From: a phage
Direction: 5' to 3' (one strand)
Sequence record: PZ171032.1
DNA length: 64,000 nt
Part shown: positions 12,443 to 64,000 of the stretch, one piece after another
How positions within the stretch are numbered: the stretch's first letter is position 1
Layout of the letters: every line of letters begins with the position of its first letter
Notes under the pieces: generated by a model
Databases searched by the model: none
Told to the model about the DNA's origin: nothing
The model's input: only the letters and a program-made list of their open reading frames with translations
Made by a program: the position numbers and the translations under genes

Positions 12443-12602
12443 CTGGAAAGGTGTTGTTGCAGATCGCTGCGTTACTGAGCCTAATTTATGGTTTGGCTCT
12501 ACAGAGTATCATAAAGAAGAGCAGTGGTTGATGCGTGCCTTCGATGTAGACAAGGGCGAATATCGTGACTTCGCTTTAAAAGACATTCTTCAGTTTTACT
12601 AA
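12381..12602 (+). CDS. hypothetical protein
   Basis: 73-aa ORF; real start may be an internal ATG. Confidence 0.35.
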   Translation: MGMKKVFNPCDSVLIRMKYRNWKGVVADRCVTEPNLWFGSTEYHKEEQWLMRAFDVDKGEYRDFALKDILQFY

Positions 12603-12614
12603 GGAATCTTAACG

Positions 12615-13598
12615 ATGATGACAAAGTTAACTCTTGAGCAAATTTTAACACTAAAGCAACAGGGATACACTAATAGACGAATTGCTCGTGAATTTTTAGG
12701 CCGTGAGTCACGTGAGAGCTGGATCCGACTACAGCTTAAACGTGCACAAGAGAATATGTCAGAGATTGTAGGAGAAGCAACGGAGCGCTTCCTTGAAGAG
12801 CACAAAGGCGCTAAAGTTTGGGTGTATGATACAGAGACATCCCCAACAAACGGCTGGTTCTTTGGGCACTATAAGACCAACATTCAAACCTGTGGTATTG
12901 AAGTTATGCCTTATATGCTAACTTTCGCAGGTAAGTGGTTAGACAGCCCTAGTGTGGTTGACTGCGCTCTTCCAGATTACAAAATGTGGGATGAGGATAT
13001 TCACAATGATCTCGAATTGATTCAGGATTTGTGGTATTATCTGGATAAATGCGATGTCGCAGTAGCCCACAATTCAGGTTTTGACTGCGGGTGGGCCAAC
13101 CAACGATTTGCATTTCACGGGTTGCCTCCAACAAGCCCCTACAAAGAGGTTGACACCCTTAAAATGATCAAGAAGGCATTCCGTTTGAATGCAAACACTT
13201 TGGAGTATGCATGCAAATACTTCCAACTGGCCAGACAGAAACTGATTGATCACACATTTGAAATGTGGATCAAGTGTGTCCATGGCGATCTTGAGGCATT
13301 TAAACAGATGCGGGAGTATAATGTTGGTGATATCCTGTCTCTGGAAGGACTGTATTTGCTGGCTCGCCCGTTTGCTAAGCAGCACCCCAACATGTCATTG
13401 TACTACCAGGATGAGGAGCCAAAAGTTCGTTGCCCACGCTGTGGTGGAGAACACCTTCACGAGGAAGAAGCTTTGGCGTATACTCAACTGAGTGCATTTA
13501 AAACATACCGCTGCGAAGGTTGTGGATCTGTTGTTCGTGACCGTAACAACATCCGCACCAGAGAAGAAATGAAAAACACCCTGATTCAGATAATCTAA
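12615..13598 (+). CDS. DEDD-family 3'-5' exonuclease with N-terminal HTH and C-terminal zinc ribbon
   Basis: Exo motifs VWVYDTETS, AHNSGFDCGW, YNVGDILSLEGLY; HTH LKQQGYTNRRIAREF; CPRCGG...CEGCG. Confidence 0.65.
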   Translation: MMTKLTLEQILTLKQQGYTNRRIAREFLGRESRESWIRLQLKRAQENMSEIVGEATERFLEEHKGAKVWVYDTETSPTNGWFFGHYKTNIQTCGIEVMPYMLTFAGKWLDSPSVVDCALPDYKMWDEDIHNDLELIQDLWYYLDKCDVAVAHNSGFDCGWANQRFAFHGLPPTSPYKEVDTLKMIKKAFRLNANTLEYACKYFQLARQKLIDHTFEMWIKCVHGDLEAFKQMREYNVGDILSLEGLYLLARPFAKQHPNMSLYYQDEEPKVRCPRCGGEHLHEEEALAYTQLSAFKTYRCEGCGSVVRDRNNIRTREEMKNTLIQII

Positions 13599-13606
13599 CA
13601 ATTATA

Positions 13607-13636
13607 GGGAGGCTTGCGCCTCCCTTTTCCTTTTGG
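13607..13636 (+). terminator. rho-independent terminator (GGGAGGC-ttgc-GCCTCCC + TTTTCCTTTT)
   Basis: Perfect 7-bp GC stem plus U-tract read directly after the exonuclease stop. Confidence 0.75.
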
Positions 13637-13643
13637 AGGCACT

Positions 13644-14462
13644 TTGAGCAAGAAAGAATCCAACGACAAATATTACACAAACCCTGAGTATGCAGAATAT
13701 CTTGTTGGTAAAGTAAAAGATAAGTATGGGAATTGTGCATACGTTGAGCCTTCTGCTGGAAGGGGTTCTTTTTCAAAACTATTTTCAGAGATACTGTCGT
13801 ACGATTTAGTACCAGATCCTGAATTTGAAGGACCAACACCGTGCATTCAGGCAAACTTCTTGGAGGTGCATCCCAAGGCAGATGTCTTCATAGGTAACCC
13901 ACCATTTGGCAAGAATTCATCCTTAGCTTGCAAATTCTTTAACCATTGTGCATCATTGCTAGAGCTTGGAGGGGCTATAGCCTTCATCTTGCCACGGACA
14001 TTTGAAAAAATATTTTTTGCAAACAAACTGGACATGTCGATGCACCTTGTCTACAGCGAAAGGTGCCCTAAGAATTCGTTTTTACTTAATGGCAAACCTT
14101 ATGACGTGCCATGTGTTTTCCAAATTTGGGAGAAAAAGGCGTGCAATAGGGATCCTGTAGAGATTGGAGAGAATAAGTTATTTTCTTTTAGCACACCAGA
14201 TGACTACGACTTCTGTGTAAGACGTGTTGGGTATAATGCTGGAAAAGTATTGGGGGATGATGACCCAAAATCTGAAGAATCAACATATTTCATAAAATCT
14301 TTAGTTAACGGTGTTGACAGAGTGTTTGCTGAATGCTATTCTTCTTTTCAAGAAGAAGCAGGTAAGACTGCTGGAATGAAGAGTATAGGTAAGAAAGAAC
14401 TACAATACATTTTGGAGACCAGGTATGATCAAAAGCATAGACTTGACCAAAGAACTTACTGA
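13644..14462 (+). CDS. DNA N6-adenine methyltransferase (motif I then NPPF)
   Basis: VEPSAGRGSF (AdoMet motif I) and FIGNPPFG (motif IV). Start set at TTG behind GGAGG, downstream of the terminator hairpin; the track ORF start lies inside the hairpin. Confidence 0.7.
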   Translation: MSKKESNDKYYTNPEYAEYLVGKVKDKYGNCAYVEPSAGRGSFSKLFSEILSYDLVPDPEFEGPTPCIQANFLEVHPKADVFIGNPPFGKNSSLACKFFNHCASLLELGGAIAFILPRTFEKIFFANKLDMSMHLVYSERCPKNSFLLNGKPYDVPCVFQIWEKKACNRDPVEIGENKLFSFSTPDDYDFCVRRVGYNAGKVLGDDDPKSEESTYFIKSLVNGVDRVFAECYSSFQEEAGKTAGMKSIGKKELQYILETRYDQKHRLDQRTY

Positions 14463-14883
14463 TGCAAAAGCTTTTGGTGAGACAGCGGTACAAAGAGGAC
14501 AGGCGATGGGACTGGCACTACCTTTCGTCTTAAAAGAGCACTTTACAGATTTTCAACTTATCAAAGGTGATAAGGGAATGCTTATCCTGGAGCATAAGTT
14601 GAGTAAGAAACGCTATAAAGTCGTTTTTAATTCTAAAGCTCCAACAAAACTGGGATTCAGAACTTACAATCTTAACCCATCCTACACTAAGGGTGTTGGA
14701 AGGGTAGAACAACAGCATTTCAGTGCCAGAGCTTCTTTAGCCCCTTTGATGCTAAATTTCTCAGGGGTGGCTTTAGGATACCTTGATAAGAAAAGGGTTC
14801 TTCATGTTCGTTTCACAGACTTTGTAACGCTTTTAGCTAACAACGAGGTTGATGAGAAGGGACGTGTAAAAACAAACTTCTAA
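14425..14883 (+). CDS. hypothetical protein
   Basis: 152-aa ORF, GGAG SD, 38-nt overlap with the MTase gene. Confidence 0.5.
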   Translation: MIKSIDLTKELTDAKAFGETAVQRGQAMGLALPFVLKEHFTDFQLIKGDKGMLILEHKLSKKRYKVVFNSKAPTKLGFRTYNLNPSYTKGVGRVEQQHFSARASLAPLMLNFSGVALGYLDKKRVLHVRFTDFVTLLANNEVDEKGRVKTNF

Positions 14884-14898
14884 TAACGCATAGTATGA

Positions 14899-15102
14899 TT
14901 GGAGACCGAAATGACACTAGAGTTAACAATTCCAGACAGCTTTTCAGAAAACTTTATCCCAGAAATGATGAGTAAGATGCGATCATTGCTTGATCAGATT
15001 GAGGAGGCTGTTTGGGAAGACGATGCTGTAGTGGCTAACGAGCTGGTAGATAAGTGTAAAAGTATTATTGATGCAGTTGAAGAATACCACGGAGGTTTTT
15101 AA
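14899..15102 (+). CDS. hypothetical acidic protein
   Basis: 67-aa ORF. Confidence 0.4.
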   Translation: METEMTLELTIPDSFSENFIPEMMSKMRSLLDQIEEAVWEDDAVVANELVDKCKSIIDAVEEYHGGF

Positions 15103-15716
15103 TGGATATTATTGTTCTTAACGCCCCACCTAGCAGTGGCAAGGATCACATTGCAGATCTCTTGTTGGAAGCTATTCCTAACTCACACCACCGCGAGGTT
15201 AAGGAAATGCTCTTCAGTGTGGCAATTAAGGCAGCTGGTGTAACCCCTCAACTCTGGAATGCACTTTATGACCGCCACTACAAGGAAGAGCCTTGCCCTT
15301 TCTTAATGATAGACGGCAAGCATGTTTCTCCGCGAGAATGGATGATCCATTGTAGTGAAAATCTGATTAAACCTATTTTTGGTGAAGATGCTTTCGGTAA
15401 AGCCGCAGTCGCATCTTTGAAGAAAGATTTCCCTGAAGGTAAAGGGGTTGTTGTTTACTCCGATGGTGGATTCAAAGAGGAGCTGGCATGCCTTAGTGAG
15501 TACGCATACAGCACAGGTGGAGATCTGTTGTTGTTCCGTATTCACCGTGTAGGATATGACTGGGGAAATGATTCCAGAACCTATCTAAGTCTGGAAAAGA
15601 ACGGAATAAAAGGGGTTGAGTTTGATGTTGTAAACCCTGAAGGTGCACCTTGGGAATGTGCATCGGAGATTGTGTGCAAGTATATTGATGCTAAAGAGGC
15701 CCAAGAAGAATGTTAA
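15102..15716 (+). CDS. deoxynucleoside monophosphate kinase (T4 gp1-like)
   Basis: N-terminal IIVLNAPPSSGKDHIADLL resembles the atypical P-loop of phage dNMP kinases. Confidence 0.55.
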   Translation: MDIIVLNAPPSSGKDHIADLLLEAIPNSHHREVKEMLFSVAIKAAGVTPQLWNALYDRHYKEEPCPFLMIDGKHVSPREWMIHCSENLIKPIFGEDAFGKAAVASLKKDFPEGKGVVVYSDGGFKEELACLSEYAYSTGGDLLLFRIHRVGYDWGNDSRTYLSLEKNGIKGVEFDVVNPEGAPWECASEIVCKYIDAKEAQEEC

Positions 15717-16303
15717 TCGGAATTGATGTAGATTTGACACTGGTAGATTCAGGAACAGCATGGTGGGAGTGGTTGGAGCGTTTGTATGGTCCAGCCAGTA
15801 AGACAGTCGCTAAACCTTCTAACGGGCTGATGTATTACGATCTGTCAAAGTATTGGCCTGATCGCCCCAAAGAAAACATCATAGGGCCTTTTGATTTCTG
15901 GAGTGACCCGTTCCTTTACGACTTTCTTAAGCCTGAAGAGGGGGCTATTGAGGTTATGAAAGATTTGGTGGCTCGTGGTCACAAGCTTGCGTTTATCTCG
16001 GTATGCAAGAAAGGTCACCTTGCATCTAAATCAAGGTTCTTAAAGCGTTGGACCAGTGATTTTATGGATCTGGACGATCACACCCAGGGCCACGGCTTCT
16101 ACGCCACACATTTCAAAGGAAATGTGGCTGTAGATGTTATAATTGACGACAGGCATGAATACCTGAACCAATTCGCTTCACGACCTGAAGTTATTAAAAT
16201 CCTAAAAGATACGCCTTATGAGCAATTCGAGGAGTTAAAGGTCAGTGTTGACTATACCGCTAATAGCTGGTATAAAATAGGAAAGTTTTTAGAAGGTATT
16301 TGA
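15710..16303 (+). CDS. HAD-superfamily hydrolase, 5'(3')-deoxyribonucleotidase-like
   Basis: HAD motif I IGIDVDLTLVDSG (DxDxT), motif II AFISVC, motif IV DVIIDD. Confidence 0.6.
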   Translation: MLIGIDVDLTLVDSGTAWWEWLERLYGPASKTVAKPSNGLMYYDLSKYWPDRPKENIIGPFDFWSDPFLYDFLKPEEGAIEVMKDLVARGHKLAFISVCKKGHLASKSRFLKRWTSDFMDLDDHTQGHGFYATHFKGNVAVDVIIDDRHEYLNQFASRPEVIKILKDTPYEQFEELKVSVDYTANSWYKIGKFLEGI

Positions 16304-16304
16304 A

Positions 16305-16505
16305 ATGGGCAGATGTTCTAAAGGTGGCGATCCTGTAGTCAGATATGGAGACTGGCTAGAGGTATATAATCTGGAGGGAAAGCTGGTGTATGCTTCCAGG
16401 ATCACCCAGGATATGTGCTCTGATATGTTTAACAGGTACCTTGCATTTAAGGCCAACATAAACCCAGATGAAATTTCCAAAATTAAAACAAGGAGAGCTA
16501 AATAA
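16305..16505 (+). CDS. hypothetical protein
   Basis: 66-aa ORF, stop overlaps thyX start. Confidence 0.4.
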   Translation: MGRCSKGGDPVVRYGDWLEVYNLEGKLVYASRITQDMCSDMFNRYLAFKANINPDEISKIKTRRAK

Positions 16506-17488
16506 TGCTAAAACTGTGCACTGCAAAGATTATTGCTGACAGCATTTCCGAGAAAGGTAAGCGTATAACCACTTTTGAGCTAGAGTATCCTAGAATCATT
16601 CACTCTGAACTCATGACACACCGAGTTTTCAGCAGAAACGCCATGTCCTCTCGTGCAGTACCTGTTAACAAAATGCTGCAGCAGGTTGTGGAAAATCCTG
16701 CAATGCCAGTTCGTTTTGGTGTAAACCAGCGAGGTATGGAGGATGGTGGCGATCACGATCAGAAGATCCGTGTCGAGTATACTGATCTTGAGTTCTCTCC
16801 TGAAAAGTTCTGGAAAGAAGCTGCCAAAAATGCAGCCTGGCATGCTGAGAAGTTTGCTCTTGCTGGATACCATAAGCAGGTGTGTAACCGCTTAGTAGAG
16901 CCGTTTCAGCGCATGAAAACAGTTGTAACAAGCACCGAGTGGAATAATTTTTTCCACCTCCGTTGCTGGCACGATGCGGATCCTACGATTCAGATGTTGG
17001 CTAATTGTATGTGGGAGGCTATGGCTAATAGCACTCCTGAAATCCTTAAACCCGGTCAATGGCACACCCCATATGTAGAGCACATTTATTTGGACGGTGA
17101 GTTTAACTATGCTGTACGGGATGCAGAAGGAAAGCTCTGCGTTCTCAATACTGAAGAAGCTCTGTCTATTAGTGCAAGCTGTTGTGCACAAGTATCTTAT
17201 CGCAATATTGACAGCACGTTTGAAAAGGCAGACAATGTGGCTAAAAAATTGATTGGTGGGGATCGTATTCATGCAAGCCCTTACGAGCACCAGGCAACAC
17301 CTATGGATCACGATAATGCAATGGAACGTTTAAACTACTATCTGTCTTCATGTGAAATCACACAAGACAGTTGTGTTTGGCAGGAAGGTGTAACCCATCA
17401 AGACCGTGATGGTAAATTCTGGTCTGCCAACTTTTGTGGGTGGGTTCAGCACAGACAACTGCTTAATAACCACTTCATGAAAGGTTAA
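16505..17488 (+). CDS. thyX: flavin-dependent thymidylate synthase (ThyX-like)
   Basis: HRVFSRNAMSSRAVP (ThyX HR-x7-S signature; first Arg replaced by Thr) and NNFFHLRCWHDADPTIQ matching recalled Thermotoga ThyX block NFLNLRADSHAQWEIQ. Confidence 0.65.
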   Translation: MLKLCTAKIIADSISEKGKRITTFELEYPRIIHSELMTHRVFSRNAMSSRAVPVNKMLQQVVENPAMPVRFGVNQRGMEDGGDHDQKIRVEYTDLEFSPEKFWKEAAKNAAWHAEKFALAGYHKQVCNRLVEPFQRMKTVVTSTEWNNFFHLRCWHDADPTIQMLANCMWEAMANSTPEILKPGQWHTPYVEHIYLDGEFNYAVRDAEGKLCVLNTEEALSISASCCAQVSYRNIDSTFEKADNVAKKLIGGDRIHASPYEHQATPMDHDNAMERLNYYLSSCEITQDSCVWQEGVTHQDRDGKFWSANFCGWVQHRQLLNNHFMKG

Positions 17489-27624: not shown

Positions 27625-28674
27625 ATGAATTTAACACCTCGCAGCACCATGGTACACGGCATGAAAGAAAAACAGAACGGTTTCGAACCTATGAGTAATA
27701 AAATGTTTGGTATGCCGGGCGGTATCATGGAAACATACAGCTACCCAACACCTGTTGTTGACCACGTTCTTTATATCGACGATTTGGAAGACCTGCAGGA
27801 TCATATGTCTCGTCTGCAGACGATCCGTATGGCTCAGCCGGAAGAAAGCATTCGGGTGATCATCAATAGCCCTGGTGGTTGCGTGCACATTGCAATGGCT
27901 TATCTGCAGGCATTCCGCGAGTCTCAGGCAAGCGTTGTTGCACATGCTGAAGGGATGTGCTGCTCTGCGGGAACAATCTTATGGCTGGGTTGTAAAGAAC
28001 GCACTGTGGCTCCGGACACAGAATTTATGTTCCACTATTATCAAGGTGGCACTTATGGTAACGGTGTGAACATGAATACTCAGGTCAGCTACTGGAAAAA
28101 ACGTTTTGAACGCCTGATCGAAAAATACTACGGTGGGGTGCTGACAGAAGATGAGATCGCATCCATCACAGCTGGTGGCGAAGTGTGGTTGGACGGAGAA
28201 GAGCTGGCAGCACGCACTGGAGCTATTATTCTGGATGAAGGCAACATACAACGCATCCAGAACGGACAAAAACCGAAAAAGCTTCTGGCAAAAGGTGATG
28301 AAGAAGGCGTGTTAGGTGAAGCAGGTCTTCCGGAGATTCACCAGTGCACATCTTTAGATGAGTTAGTTCATGCTGTTGAATCTGCAAAAGCGGGTGGTTC
28401 GAAAGGTGATGTTCACACTGTGTTCCTGAATCTGCAGATGGAAAGTGGCGAGACCGTCAGAATTGCCCTGGGTGAGATTACTTCAGAAGATCTGCAGAGA
28501 TTCTCTGTCGTTGAACTTCAGGATATTCTGTCTCAATTGAAGACTACTCTGAACGGCGGTGAAGAGGTTAAGGTGAAAGATAAGACGCGCAAGCGTCTGG
28601 TGGACAATATTATTAAAACAGCAAAAGAGCTCAATGAAAAAATCCTGGGTGCAGGAATTGTCGAAGAAGCTTAA
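27625..28674 (+). CDS. ClpP-family (S14-like) serine peptidase with about 150-aa C-terminal extension
   Basis: VIINSPGG, catalytic-Ser context GMCCSAGTILWLG, His context FMFHYYQ, in ClpP order. Confidence 0.55.
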   Translation: MNLTPRSTMVHGMKEKQNGFEPMSNKMFGMPGGIMETYSYPTPVVDHVLYIDDLEDLQDHMSRLQTIRMAQPEESIRVIINSPGGCVHIAMAYLQAFRESQASVVAHAEGMCCSAGTILWLGCKERTVAPDTEFMFHYYQGGTYGNGVNMNTQVSYWKKRFERLIEKYYGGVLTEDEIASITAGGEVWLDGEELAARTGAIILDEGNIQRIQNGQKPKKLLAKGDEEGVLGEAGLPEIHQCTSLDELVHAVESAKAGGSKGDVHTVFLNLQMESGETVRIALGEITSEDLQRFSVVELQDILSQLKTTLNGGEEVKVKDKTRKRLVDNIIKTAKELNEKILGAGIVEEA

Positions 28675-28686
28675 ACATTAATTCTA

Positions 28687-28712
28687 AAGCCCTCTTCGGA
28701 GGGCTTTTATGA
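28687..28712 (+). terminator. rho-independent terminator (AAGCCCTC-ttcg-GAGGGCTT + TTAT)
   Basis: Read directly after the ClpP-like gene. Confidence 0.7.
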
Positions 28713-28725
28713 TCTGGAGATTTGC

Positions 28726-29259
28726 ATGACTTGTGCTAGAAAACCTGATGAACAACGTAACGCCTACGATGAGTATGTGACACCGGAGTGGTGTGCAGAA
28801 GGGCTGTATGACCTTATTCCGTTCCCAGAAGACTGGACCTACTTAGAGCCTTGCAGGAATAGTGCCTCAGGTGTGTTCTACTCCCGTATGCCGTTAGGAT
28901 CTGCATGGGGAGAAATCCAAGAAGGTGTTGACTATCTGAATACAGAATACAACCATGTTGACTGTATTATCACCAACCCGCCGTACAGCCTGGCTCGTGA
29001 GTTTGTGGACAAGGCGTTGAAAGATGCCGACGTAGTTATTATGCTTTTGCGTCTTAATTTTCTGGAAAGCAAGGCCAGATTTGAATGGTGGCTTGATAAT
29101 GCACCTACCACTGTGATTACAATATCTAAGCGCCCGTCATTCCAATCCAATGGTAGAACGGATGGGCAGGCATATGCATATTTTGTATGGGACAAGAAAA
29201 ACCGTCTAGACTTGCCGCCATTTATGTGGTTGGCACCACCAGAGGTAGATTTGAAATGA
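28726..29259 (+). CDS. small DNA methyltransferase (NPPY motif; N6-adenine or N4-cytosine)
   Basis: DCIITNPPYS motif IV; 177 aa. Confidence 0.6.
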   Translation: MTCARKPDEQRNAYDEYVTPEWCAEGLYDLIPFPEDWTYLEPCRNSASGVFYSRMPLGSAWGEIQEGVDYLNTEYNHVDCIITNPPYSLAREFVDKALKDADVVIMLLRLNFLESKARFEWWLDNAPTTVITISKRPSFQSNGRTDGQAYAYFVWDKKNRLDLPPFMWLAPPEVDLK

Positions 29260-29540
29260 AAATGAGTGCTAAGGACAAGTTGCACCAGTTAGCGCTAAAA
29301 CGTCCTGTAACGCTCCCTGACGAGCTTAACTCCATTTATGATGCGATTGTAGGGGAGATACAAAATAAAGCGTTAGCAGGCTTTCTGGGATGCGGATTTT
29401 CGATAAATCTACCCTCACATCTCTCAGATTACTTCCCGCATATTGTTGGGGATTTGAGGGCAGGAGGTCTGCAGGTAGATGTTGTTGGCATCTCTCCAGA
29501 GAAAAATAGCACGGTTGCCTACTTGACAGTAACCTGGTAG
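29256..29540 (+). CDS. hypothetical protein
   Basis: ATGA overlap with MTase stop. Confidence 0.45.
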   Translation: MKMSAKDKLHQLALKRPVTLPDELNSIYDAIVGEIQNKALAGFLGCGFSINLPSHLSDYFPHIVGDLRAGGLQVDVVGISPEKNSTVAYLTVTW

Positions 29541-29574
29541 TTATGTATTGTTGTTCTCAACAAGGGGGTCATTT

Positions 29575-29814
29575 ATGTACAAGTCATTTTCAATTTACTC
29601 AAGACAGGCGAAACACTACACAGAGATCCTGATTACTCAGAAAAAATCTGTAGAAGGTGAGTGGGAATATCACCATAAAATGTTGCGTCCAGATTGGGTT
29701 TTTGATAGACTTATTGCTATGATCCCTCTTGGAGAAGTATACCCTCTGACAGCCCATCGCGATGCTTGGGATTTAATTTATTACATAGATTCATTTAAGG
29801 AGCCTAGATTATGA
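29575..29814 (+). CDS. hypothetical protein
   Basis: Start at MYKSF behind AAGGGGG. Confidence 0.4.
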   Translation: MYKSFSIYSRQAKHYTEILITQKKSVEGEWEYHHKMLRPDWVFDRLIAMIPLGEVYPLTAHRDAWDLIYYIDSFKEPRL

Positions 29815-30209
29815 AGATTGAGATTACTAAAGAAGGTAAGAAAGTGTCCGGCAACTATGCAACAGTAATTCGGGATTTAATGTTTGAAGCCACCAAGATC
29901 GGTACATCTAAAGTTGGTCAAACTGTTAGTGTGAAAAGTAATATCTCCACAGGAGAGAAGGTATTCATTGTGGTCAAAGGGCAGGATCCCGTGGGAGGAA
30001 CAGTGGGCCGAGGTGGCTACCTGTGCATTTCTGAAGAGCCGCGTATGTTAGTGGCTGACGCTACTATGGGTGGGAAACGTGTGTGCGAGGCGGATGAGGT
30101 AATGATTATCCAACCTGTTGATCCAGATGACCCAGCAACTTGGGTGGTAGGAAATGAAATCTTCTCTTTAGAAGAGTTATCCTTCCCAGCACCGCGCTCT
30201 GTTCAGTAA
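29811..30209 (+). CDS. hypothetical protein (MKIEIT... N-terminus)
   Basis: 132-aa ORF. Confidence 0.45.
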   Translation: MKIEITKEGKKVSGNYATVIRDLMFEATKIGTSKVGQTVSVKSNISTGEKVFIVVKGQDPVGGTVGRGGYLCISEEPRMLVADATMGGKRVCEADEVMIIQPVDPDDPATWVVGNEIFSLEELSFPAPRSVQ

Positions 30210-61221: not shown

Positions 61222-63300
61222 TTAAAAAGGTGTTTCATCATCCTCAAAACCAGGAACATGGTCAGAGGACGGATCATCGTACTGGAGGTCTTCCTGCGTG
61301 TCAACAGGCTTAACAGTAGGAGTTACAACCTTATCAGCCACAACCTTACCCATAGGTGTTTCTACAACTGCATGCTCCTGATCCTCAAACATAGCCTGAG
61401 GTCTCCAAACAACCTCCCCACCTTCTCCATCTGTAAACATTTGCATTTCTTTGTCCCAGTACCAATTACTGGCATCATGGAACTTACCTGTATGTGGGTC
61501 CATAACCAAAGTGTCTGCAATACCTAAAGTTTTTGCTGGACGGTTTTTAAGACCTACCAGTCGGACACGCCCACGAGAACGATCCACCATTTCTTCGGCC
61601 TCGACACCTATGACTACCCAACTCAACTGTTCAAGCCCAGCCGATCCTCGCAAATTCTCTTTTCGCACAGGATACCAGAAAGGTAACGGGTTACCATCCT
61701 TGTCCTTAGGAGGCACAATCTCTGTACGTTTGAGGTGAGCGATCACCAAGATAAACACATTGAACTGCTTACAAAACGCAGCCAGCTGGGTCATAGCCAT
61801 GTCCAGTTCTTTTCGCTCATCCTTAACATTAAGCCCCGAAATTACCATAGACAGGTGATCCAGCACAATATAACGGCAATGGTACAGGCAAACCATTTGC
61901 TTAAGCTTGGTAATCAACTCGTCCACCGGAATAGACCCGAAATGTTTGAACACTTTGATTTTTCCAGCTTTTGCCCATGATTGGTGAATCTCTGCGTGTT
62001 CTTGATCAGTTAAAAACTGGCTAGGATCTTCAACAAACTCTTTAACATCAAACCCTAGCTGGTTTGCATACAAGGAGTTAATTGCTTCCTCTGGGTCCTC
62101 CTCAAGATGGATCATGCATAGACGATCATCCTCTTCATAGTCATCGGCCTTCGGGCATGTCGGGTCCATCAAGTATCTTGCAATACAATGTTCCAGTTTT
62201 TTAGCTACAGTTGTTTTACCGCCCCCTGATGGCCCTGTAAGCATTACGAGTGTCCCTTTGTGCAAGCCTTTTAGCATTTTTTGCAGTTTTGGAAACTCTG
62301 CGCTGATATCTACCCCGTTGGAAGTCTTTTTCCGCAAAGATTCGATAGAGAAGTCTTCTAAATCCGACACAGCATCAGGCACATACTTAACAGGATGCCG
62401 GAACATGTTTACAATATCTTCCAGCTTTTTAGCCTTTAGCATGTCACGGATATCTTTTACACCGTCAGGATCGTTTACCTCACCGGGGTATTCTACGTGG
62501 TAAACGTTATCAGCCATCAAAAATGCTGCGATATTGTGCGTGGCCTCAACACCTTTAATGACGTGTTTTTGCTTCTCTACCTCGTTAGCTGCATCGTTAT
62601 CCATTGCCAGCACAACTGTTCCATAGCTACGGATAAACTTCTCATTGTTTGCAAAAGTATCTACTGCGTTTGCACATCCACAGTTAATTCCAACAAAAGG
62701 CAGGCATGGTTTTCCTGCCAGATCGCCACCGTTGATAACTGCATCGATCCCGTCCTGGACCTCTTTAGCCCACTGTTTCACCTTTGCCGGGGCTTTAGCG
62801 TTGGTGAGAATCCCTTTTACTTGTATCTGATATGCAGCCTGCCATGCTGCAATAACATCACCTTCTCCCTCACAAACGTTAATCTGCTTACGGTTGTTGG
62901 AAGATGCACACAGCTTTTGACCAAACATCTGAGAGTTAGCCTTTACTATGCCAACAACGGAGAAATGGCCTCTTTGCTCTTTAGGAATCGTCCAGTCACG
63001 CTTTTTGAAACCGGACAGATTTCCGTAGCGGTCGTAATATGGGAAATATGTTGCAGTGACTGTCACACCATCTTCTTGGGATAATGCTGATCGCACACCA
63101 AAATATTGTGCAGCCATCAGACCGATATTTTGTTGTGGGACAGGGACAATTTTAGTATTTTCTAAAACAGTCTCTACAGTTTCAACTTCTTTTTCATCAC
63201 GATAGTCTCGTTTCACACTTCCCCCACTTTTATACTTAGTTGCTTTCGGGTTTGGCTCACCGAAACGGTTGTATGCAGATGCCATAAATTTACTTCCCAT
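61222..63300 (-). CDS. DNA primase-helicase (T7 gp4-like: TOPRIM + DnaB-family helicase)
   Basis: TOPRIM VCEGEGDVIA; Walker A LTGPSGGGKTT; Walker B IVLDHLS; acidic C-terminal tail ending ...EDDETPF. Confidence 0.85.
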   Translation of the reverse strand: MGSKFMASAYNRFGEPNPKATKYKSGGSVKRDYRDEKEVETVETVLENTKIVPVPQQNIGLMAAQYFGVRSALSQEDGVTVTATYFPYYDRYGNLSGFKKRDWTIPKEQRGHFSVVGIVKANSQMFGQKLCASSNNRKQINVCEGEGDVIAAWQAAYQIQVKGILTNAKAPAKVKQWAKEVQDGIDAVINGGDLAGKPCLPFVGINCGCANAVDTFANNEKFIRSYGTVVLAMDNDAANEVEKQKHVIKGVEATHNIAAFLMADNVYHVEYPGEVNDPDGVKDIRDMLKAKKLEDIVNMFRHPVKYVPDAVSDLEDFSIESLRKKTSNGVDISAEFPKLQKMLKGLHKGTLVMLTGPSGGGKTTVAKKLEHCIARYLMDPTCPKADDYEEDDRLCMIHLEEDPEEAINSLYANQLGFDVKEFVEDPSQFLTDQEHAEIHQSWAKAGKIKVFKHFGSIPVDELITKLKQMVCLYHCRYIVLDHLSMVISGLNVKDERKELDMAMTQLAAFCKQFNVFILVIAHLKRTEIVPPKDKDGNPLPFWYPVRKENLRGSAGLEQLSWVVIGVEAEEMVDRSRGRVRLVGLKNRPAKTLGIADTLVMDPHTGKFHDASNWYWDKEMQMFTDGEGGEVVWRPQAMFEDQEHAVVETPMGKVVADKVVTPTVKPVDTQEDLQYDDPSSDHVPGFEDDETPF

Positions 63301-64000
63301 TAATTCTGCTCCTTACTACAGGCTCGTTTGCTAAGAATACGGCTTTTGCCCAGCCACGTGGTGTGAGGCTTCGAATCATCTTCGTTCTTGCACTCTTTCC
63401 ACCCAGCTTGGCGTGTTGCATGGAATACCCGCTAACCACGTCAACTATTTGCGGGACAGGTTTTGTGGCCGGGATTATAAATCCATTACCTATCCAGCCG
63501 CAAGTTATTTTTGGATAGGCATCACGTGGAGCTATAAATTCAGGAAACCATGGGTTTACATCATCTTCCGGTAAATACCCGCCATAGTCAGAAGGATGAA
63601 AACGGTAATCAGGTTTGCGCCACAGTGTGGACATAACACCTACAGGATTCTCTACATGCCACGGGCAATCGTAAATCTCTCCCAGCTCTTCCGCAACCCG
63701 AGCATCCCTTACAGCATTAATTTGGATCATGGGATCCTTAGCCAGCTTTTTCTTAAAATGTGCAGCACCTGATACCGCTAAATGCGTGCACGGAGGAAAT
63801 GCAAGAATAAAGTCTGGAGCTGGGTACATGCAAAAAGTTTCCTGAGGGAACCATGGGTCAATCCAATAATCCACATAGTGAATGTTGGGATGATCGGTTA
63901 TCACCTCTGCATAACTGCCGTGATCAGCACCTTCTGCATTAAAGCACAGGCACAGATACCCAGCTTTTGCCCAGTCAATGACTGCACCACCAGATCCGTC
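63290..64000 (-). CDS. DNA cytosine-5 methyltransferase (5' end lies beyond the window)
   Basis: Motif IV AFPPCTHLAVSGA (PC), motif VI HVENPVG (ENV-type); reading frame continues upstream of the track start to the window edge, where DGSGGAV resembles motif I. Confidence 0.65.
   Translation of the reverse strand, partial: DGSGGAVIDWAKAGYLCLCFNAEGADHGSYAEVITDHPNIHYVDYWIDPWFPQETFCMYPAPDFILAFPPCTHLAVSGAAHFKKKLAKDPMIQINAVRDARVAEELGEIYDCPWHVENPVGVMSTLWRKPDYRFHPSDYGGYLPEDDVNPWFPEFIAPRDAYPKITCGWIGNGFIIPATKPVPQIVDVVSGYSMQHAKLGGKSARTKMIRSLTPRGWAKAVFLANEPVVRSRINGK

Follow-up and report, generated by a model that had tools for sequence, protein, structure and literature searches.

Conserved methyltransferase genes without partner nucleases in an rV5-like Vequintavirus whose near-identical relatives are strongly restricted

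The 64 000-nucleotide stretch of phage DNA analysed here (the window) carries three genes, A, B and C, which probably encode conserved SAM-dependent DNA methyltransferases that lack a partner nuclease, methylate the phage DNA and give narrow protection at most. An earlier note on this DNA had read them as broad self-methylation and an anti-restriction strategy; this is contradicted by published plating data on near-identical phages, which suffer strong restriction by EcoRI, EcoRV and EcoCFT_II and in most cases by EcoP1 too. The features referred to below are as follows.

13606..13625, + strand: terminator-like hairpin in the gap from the exonuclease gene to gene A (stem of 8 bp with 6 G–C pairs, T-rich tail)
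13635–13639, + strand: Shine–Dalgarno sequence GGAGG before gene A
13644..14462, + strand: gene A (272 aa, TTG start), predicted gamma-class M.TaqI-like N6-adenine methyltransferase
13671–13682, + strand: gene A, motif X, YYTN
13746–13772, + strand: gene A, motif I, EPSAGRGSF
13896–13907, + strand: gene A, motif IV, NPPF
about residues 169–272 of protein A: C-terminal domain, presumed target-recognition domain
14425..14883, + strand: ORF downstream of gene A (152 aa), overlapping the end of gene A by 38 nt; ORFan
28726..29259, + strand: gene B (177 aa, ATG start, GGAG 7 nt upstream), predicted gamma-type amino-methyltransferase core
28846–28872, + strand: gene B, motif I, EPCRNSASG
28975–28986, + strand: gene B, motif IV, NPPY
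63290..64000, − strand: gene C (236 of 254 residues in the window), predicted compact C5-cytosine methyltransferase
63353–63373, − strand: gene C, motif IX, RSLTPRG
63644–63652, − strand: gene C, motif VI, ENP
63788–63793, − strand: gene C, catalytic PC
63986–64000, − strand: gene C, motif I, DGSGG

The window belongs to a Vequintavirus, an rV5-like E. coli myovirus, and is 98–100% identical to phages isim, JES2013 and JeffSchatz. Megablast searches with three parts of the window returned 117–122 GenBank phage records at 90–100% identity, nearly all of them rV5-like Vequintavirus, and the phage is therefore well sampled and well annotated. Among the GenBank phage records, isim is 100% identical over segment 62800–64000, and JeffSchatz and nom are 98.9% identical over segment 12600–16600. 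At the three methyltransferase loci the nucleotide identity between JeffSchatz and the window is 97.5–99.5%, and the same genes are annotated. Intact reading frames for A, B and C are kept across about 115–121 phage records (the conservation figures for the three loci are 121, 119 and 117 records), and the three are conserved core genes of the rV5-like phages (genus Vequintavirus). The matches to 12600–16600, 28000–30000 and 62800–64000 also include 16–20 unannotated GenBank records within MG065644–MG065690 that are named 'Campylobacter phage', with Campylobacter jejuni as the host, and are 97–99% identical to the window; these records are probably mislabelled or contaminant assemblies.

GenBank labels A, B and C as putative methyltransferases, and public annotation and papers already cover both the genes and their reading. 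Methyltransferase sets have been described in phage BME3 (phi92-like), in Pectobacterium phage CB7 and in the BASEL and Danish Vequintavirus genomes; from these relatives the window shows no difference of substance, being another isolate of the same genus. As the genes are already annotated and near-identical phages are strongly restricted, the finding is an ordinary one.

The presence of three methyltransferase reading frames at the positions claimed in the earlier note was confirmed by comparison with PHROGs, in which protein A matched phrog_5172 (E = 4e-129), protein B phrog_799 ('DNA methyltransferase', E = 8e-67) and protein C phrog_757 ('DNA methyltransferase', E = 1e-70). The same note had assigned them to three different classes, of which two remain: the A and B families align with an hhalign probability of 96.5% (E = 1e-9) over residues 2–168 of A and 9–161 of B, and because B thus aligns with the core of A the two are homologous gamma-type amino-methyltransferases of one class, the other class being that of the C5-cytosine enzyme C. 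All three proteins stay below the curated threshold of every Pfam and NCBIfam model, and the assignments are therefore based on PHROGs, PADLOC, profile and fold comparisons; single-sequence searches of solved structures gave nothing significant. Comparison of all 518 stop-to-stop ORFs with profiles of the A, B and C families and of a fourth enzyme of the relatives revealed no further methyltransferase in the window. This fourth methyltransferase (441 aa; PF01555, E = 3e-42; PADLOC Type III Mod, E = 1e-204) is encoded in relatives about 1.3 kb past the window end (JeffSchatz bas55_0069, isim_60). JeffSchatz, MaxBurger and isim have it, whereas AlexBoehm, MaxTheCat and HeinrichReichert lack it, and from this patchy presence it is taken to be an accessory indel gene.

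Gene A coincides exactly with an annotated CDS in nom, APECc02 and JeffSchatz (bas55_0193/nom_92/FDG86_gp124) and starts with TTG rather than ATG. The upstream TTG at 13614, which had been chosen by the ORF lister, lies within the hairpin at 13606–13625, and this speaks against its use as the start. In phage Gotham a 'terminator' feature is annotated somewhere under the 12600–16600 query match. A G+C-rich hairpin with a weak T tail, followed by the Shine–Dalgarno sequence, was also seen upstream of gene B at about 28687..28706 (+ strand); with such hairpins directly 5' of both, genes A and B lie just past likely transcription stops. Protein A shows the gamma-class motif order (YYTN, EPSAGRGSF, D54, (N/D)FL and NPPF, i.e. 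motifs X, I, II, III and IV), and across 24 aligned homologues, the most distant at 40% identity, DxxYT, EPSAGxGxF, D54, GNPPFG and further positions are invariant. It matched the PADLOC Type II MTase model PDLC03255 (E = 3e-34, residues 8–253) and, at full length, a second PADLOC Type II RM methyltransferase model (E = 1.5e-25); the gathering score of Pfam Eco57I (PF07669) was missed (15.5 bits, cut-off 25.3). Many A-family homologues carry Pfam PF26055 ('Mtase_EDM2', named after plant EDM2), to which the window protein gave no match in the local Pfam. In the confident AlphaFold model of protein A (pLDDT 90.9) the core is followed by a domain of about 100 residues.

Gene B is the annotated CDS bas55_0173. 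The B family comprises 312 proteins, mostly of 160–227 aa, and keeps YxTP, EPC, TNPP, LLRLNF, RPSF and D...Y...W; in protein B itself the motifs follow the gamma order (YVTP, EPCRNSASG, EI, DYL, NPPY), and Tyr86 of NPPY is Phe in some family members (NPPY/F). With the B-family profile the best match among solved structures was M.TaqI (E = 1.8e-4); further matches were to Type I M subunits and Erm/KsgA enzymes. Protein B has no target-recognition domain, ending 16 residues past the position that matches residue 168 of A, and the C-terminal extensions of the 226–227-aa family members are not conserved. It is the catalytic core alone, with all SAM-binding and NPPY motifs. When Eco57I (PF07669), N6_Mtase and EcoRI_methylase were tested, protein B remained below the curated Pfam cut-offs (20.1 versus 26.4 and 13.3 versus 25.3 bits). 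It resembles the small phage 'Dam' family (PF05869, TIGR01712) in being of similar size, phage-borne and orphan and in its NPPY-type motif, but it falls under both curated thresholds (PF05869, E = 1e-3, 19.2 bits, cut-off 28.1; TIGR01712, 16.1, cut-off 97) and is therefore not a member by these thresholds; one B homologue carries PF05869.

Gene C is the annotated CDS isim_56/bas55_0073 ('Dcm-like C5 cytosine methyltransferase'). The C5-cytosine methyltransferase that the earlier note had placed at 63290..64000 is indeed found there, but the gene is incomplete: its first 18 codons lie past the window end, the CDS in isim and JeffSchatz being 765 nt (254 aa) long, and by homology to isim the start therefore maps to 64054. 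The 236 residues encoded in the window do not differ from those of the isim protein. Searches for the C family gave 3,559 matches, nearly all of 225–260 aa. The protein contains SLFDGSGG, FPPC, VENP and IRSLTPRG, its counterparts of the C5 motifs I (FxGxG), IV (Pro-Cys), VI (ENV, with the glutamate) and IX (RxLTxRE); in an alignment of 22 diverse members PPC, ENP and IRSL-PR are invariant, and G20/S21 (motif I) and T231/G234 (motif IX) are nearly so. All 14 matches of the C-family profile to solved structures at E ≤ 10 are C5 DNA methyltransferases, each with an E of about 0.07–1.2, and the viral structural neighbours of C are named cytosine methylases. The predicted fold of protein C is that of C5 methyltransferases. 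Pfam PF00145 had no match in the window protein or in its full-length counterpart from isim, and it is carried by three of the 120 listed C homologues. Compared with M.HhaI, M.HaeIII and the DNMT3 catalytic domain (PF00145), protein C is short (254 aa versus at least 327). Only about 40 residues separate RDAYPK (177–182) from IRSLTPRG (227–234), between motifs VIII and IX, where canonical C5 enzymes have a large recognition domain; the alignment showed no clear equivalents of motifs VIII (QxRxR) and X (GNxV), and motif IX seems to be merged with motif X. As a C5 enzyme protein C is minimal, and in build it comes nearest to the compact DNMT3 catalytic domain. An E. coli homologue (54% identical) is located in the nin region of a lambdoid prophage, near a PF05869 Dam gene. 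In HeinrichReichert an inserted gene for a putative homing endonuclease (bas58_0074) separates gene C from the primase/helicase gene, and the last residues of C differ.

The absence of a cognate nuclease for A, B and C was borne out, within the limit that restriction enzymes are hard to recognise by sequence: the neighbours were identified and none is a restriction enzyme, and the BASEL annotation of JeffSchatz likewise has none near A, B or C. Gene A is located between a DnaQ-like exonuclease gene and small ORFs, ahead of thymidylate synthase and ribonucleotide reductase genes; gene B follows a ClpP-like protease gene and has small hypothetical ORFs nearby; gene C overlaps a primase/helicase gene. 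The records of nom and APECc02 give the ORF at 14425..14883 the label 'putative DNA N6-adenine methyltransferase'. It was rejected both as a partner nuclease and as a second methyltransferase, with no Pfam, PADLOC, methyltransferase, nuclease or defence-model match. Among phage families it matched only phrog_9938 (function unknown), a search of 1.84 billion proteins gave only five matching representatives, and the GenBank label is probably a propagated annotation error. Its similarity to the ORF downstream of a bacterial A homologue is weak (E = 0.002 over 37 residues). A conserved partner gene beside the A-family homologues was likewise rejected, the downstream genes differing in every context examined. 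In other phages the A and B homologues have differing neighbours (A relatives in one phage lie between primase-helicase and DNA polymerase genes), and elsewhere the families of all three genes are found in replication or nin-region modules of phages or prophages with no conserved partner. In two bacterial genomes the A homologue is followed by a small ORF of unknown function; one of these ORFs matches REase_II weakly and has a Type I system next to it. This context fits an origin from Type II RM systems and is not proof of it.

Plating data for the near-identical phages were taken as raw counts from the BASEL S1 Data of Maffei et al. (PMC8594841), in which six systems were tested. The EOP of JeffSchatz was 0.1–0.6 on EcoKI, 0.5–1.4 on EcoCFT_I, 3.5e-4 to 1.7e-3 on EcoRI and at most 2.4e-3 on EcoP1; there were no plaques on EcoCFT_II, and none on EcoRV except in one replicate at 3e-7. 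MaxBurger, AlexBoehm, MaxTheCat, HeinrichReichert and EduardKellenberger behaved alike for EcoRI, EcoRV and EcoCFT_II, as did the phage of a further table that precedes MaxBurger and is probably JohannBauhin. The stocks had been raised on a restriction-free K-12 host (PMC8594841), and the phage enzymes therefore had every chance to act. On EcoP1, AlexBoehm and MaxTheCat gave an EOP of 0.12–0.57, compared with about 1e-2 or less for the five other Vequintavirus isolates (PMC8594841). The fourth, Type III Mod-like methyltransferase was rejected as the cause of this resistance for want of a correlation: neither EcoP1-resistant phage carries the gene, nor does the most sensitive one, whereas two sensitive phages do. 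The alleles of C, which differ by at most six residues among Vequintavirus isolates, were rejected as well, showing no pattern. The counts of AGACC sites are similar (about 200–218, taking the last column of the S5 table as EcoP1 sites). In the Drexlerviridae, too, no simple link was seen between methyltransferase genes and restriction resistance (BASEL, PMC8594841). The literature covered yielded no methylomes or restriction digests of rV5-like phages and no enzymology of these proteins, and methylation is not mentioned in the rV5 genome paper.

Other readings of the three genes were weighed against these results. A small probability is kept for protein A being an RNA N6-adenine methyltransferase (METTL5/COG2263-like) that acts on host or phage RNA instead of DNA. 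Searched against solved structures, the A-family profile ranks Ta1320 first (E = 1.5e-4) and then METTL5, both of which are RNA m6A enzymes, ahead of M.TaqI; the NPPF motif is common to METTL5, and some homologues are named 'predicted RNA methylase' or 'RNA methylase'. However, these profile matches span only the motif I–IV region, a generic Rossmann core of about 140–150 residues, whereas 229–250 of the 272 residues of protein A can be superposed on DNA enzymes like TaqI, BseCI, CamA and MmeI, which exceeds the core alone, and from the aligned lengths the superposition would take in part of its C-terminal domain. The Type II RM methyltransferase models match at full length, and the bacterial A homologue with the REase_II-like ORF behind it adjoins a Type I RM system. 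Protein A is concluded to be a compact M.TaqI-type DNA adenine methyltransferase, with a Rossmann core of about 168 residues and, C-terminal to it, some 100 residues forming a domain by which a short DNA site is presumably read. M.TaqI, M.BseCI and CamA are gamma-class N6-adenine DNA methyltransferases of 421–585 aa with a C-terminal recognition domain; A differs from them in its length of only 272 aa, in having no partner nuclease and in scoring below the Eco57I gathering score, and B differs in having no recognition domain at all. That at least one of the genes, B above all, is an inactive remnant or depends on a partner is improbable. The missing recognition domain and the motif I of the rV5 clade (EPCRNSASG, compared with EPCxGxG in distant relatives) point in this direction, as does the absence of a protection phenotype in the BASEL plating data. 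Yet the reading frames are intact throughout the phage records, TNPP, R109, R136, D146, Y150 and W155 of B are invariant in homologues down to 36% identity, and motif I of M.TaqI (EPACAHGPF), which aligns with that of B, is likewise non-GxG.

What the methylation is for was considered in the same way. The proposal that the enzymes jointly methylate the genome so widely that host restriction is evaded in general has very little left in its favour. Several methyltransferases within one genome would agree with it, and there is experimental precedent in lactococcal 936-type phages, which have reportedly acquired orphan methyltransferases, without nucleases, that protect against restriction endonuclease activity, the protection having been measured. 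The same anti-restriction reading, the textbook one, is also in print for the phi92-like relative BME3. Given the positions methylated by M.EcoRI and M.EcoRV, neither EcoRI nor EcoRV could cut DNA with non-specific adenine methylation. Restriction by these two enzymes therefore means that the adenines modified by M.EcoRI and M.EcoRV are unmethylated on virion DNA, by which broad or non-specific adenine methylation is ruled out for virion DNA. Phages with the same genes plate at an EOP of about 1e-3 to 1e-4 on EcoRI and form hardly a plaque on EcoRV; EcoCFT_II allows none, and EcoP1 restricts most of them (PMC8594841), so that general evasion is contradicted for four of the six systems tested. 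The protection measured in the 936-type phages thus contrasts with the sensitivity seen in the available plating data on rV5-like phages. A role in the phage's own biology instead of in defence evasion is unlikely, with an appreciable chance all the same; marking of replicated DNA, timing of packaging or gene expression and escape from host mismatch repair are possible roles. The Dam enzymes of phages P1 and T4 provide precedent for them. The positions of A and C inside replication and nucleotide-metabolism modules (C overlapping the primase/helicase gene, A following the DnaQ-like exonuclease gene) and of the A relatives noted above agree with such roles, as does the near-invariance of these core genes in phages that show no protection; against this, the families are also found in many unrelated phages of different lifestyles. 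Rather doubtful is a joint reading in which B is an active free-standing core, C represents an uncharacterised minimal family and A, B and C together guard against defences absent from the BASEL panel. In that case the choice of site by B would depend on a partner protein, on the DNA structure at replication forks or on loops of the core; C would stand for more than 3,500 minimal C5 methyltransferases of 225–260 aa with specificity set by the region of about 40 residues; and the defences would be, for example, BREX/DISARM-type systems or rarer Type II systems of wild E. coli.

The favoured reading is that of conserved orphan enzymes with narrow effect. If the proteins are catalytically active and act on DNA, genes A, B and C would be expressed along with the adjoining replication and nucleotide-metabolism genes, and the enzymes would methylate newly made phage DNA at specific short motifs. 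Progeny would then be protected only against host systems whose sites overlap the methylated motifs, and there would be no general shield. To this extent the earlier note is right that the target specificities would predict the host RM systems evaded. From the restriction by EcoRI, EcoRV, EcoCFT_II and mostly EcoP1 it follows that any protection must be narrow and site-specific, possibly directed against systems outside the six-system BASEL panel. The case cautions that the number of methyltransferase genes does not predict restriction resistance: Vequintavirus phages have three or four methyltransferases, yet they are among the most restriction-sensitive E. coli phages measured. The target motifs, if determined, would show which natural defences, if any, shaped the rV5-like phages and whether compact enzymes of 177 and 254 residues can be sequence-specific.

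An attempt to guess the target sites from site avoidance was set aside as not diagnostic. GATC (351 sites, observed/expected 1.04), TCGA, TGCA and AGCT are not avoided in the window; under a maximal-order Markov expectation GTAC (observed/expected 0.54), CTAG (0.53) and ACGT (0.71) are under-represented. The window contains eight EcoRI sites and 28 EcoRV sites.
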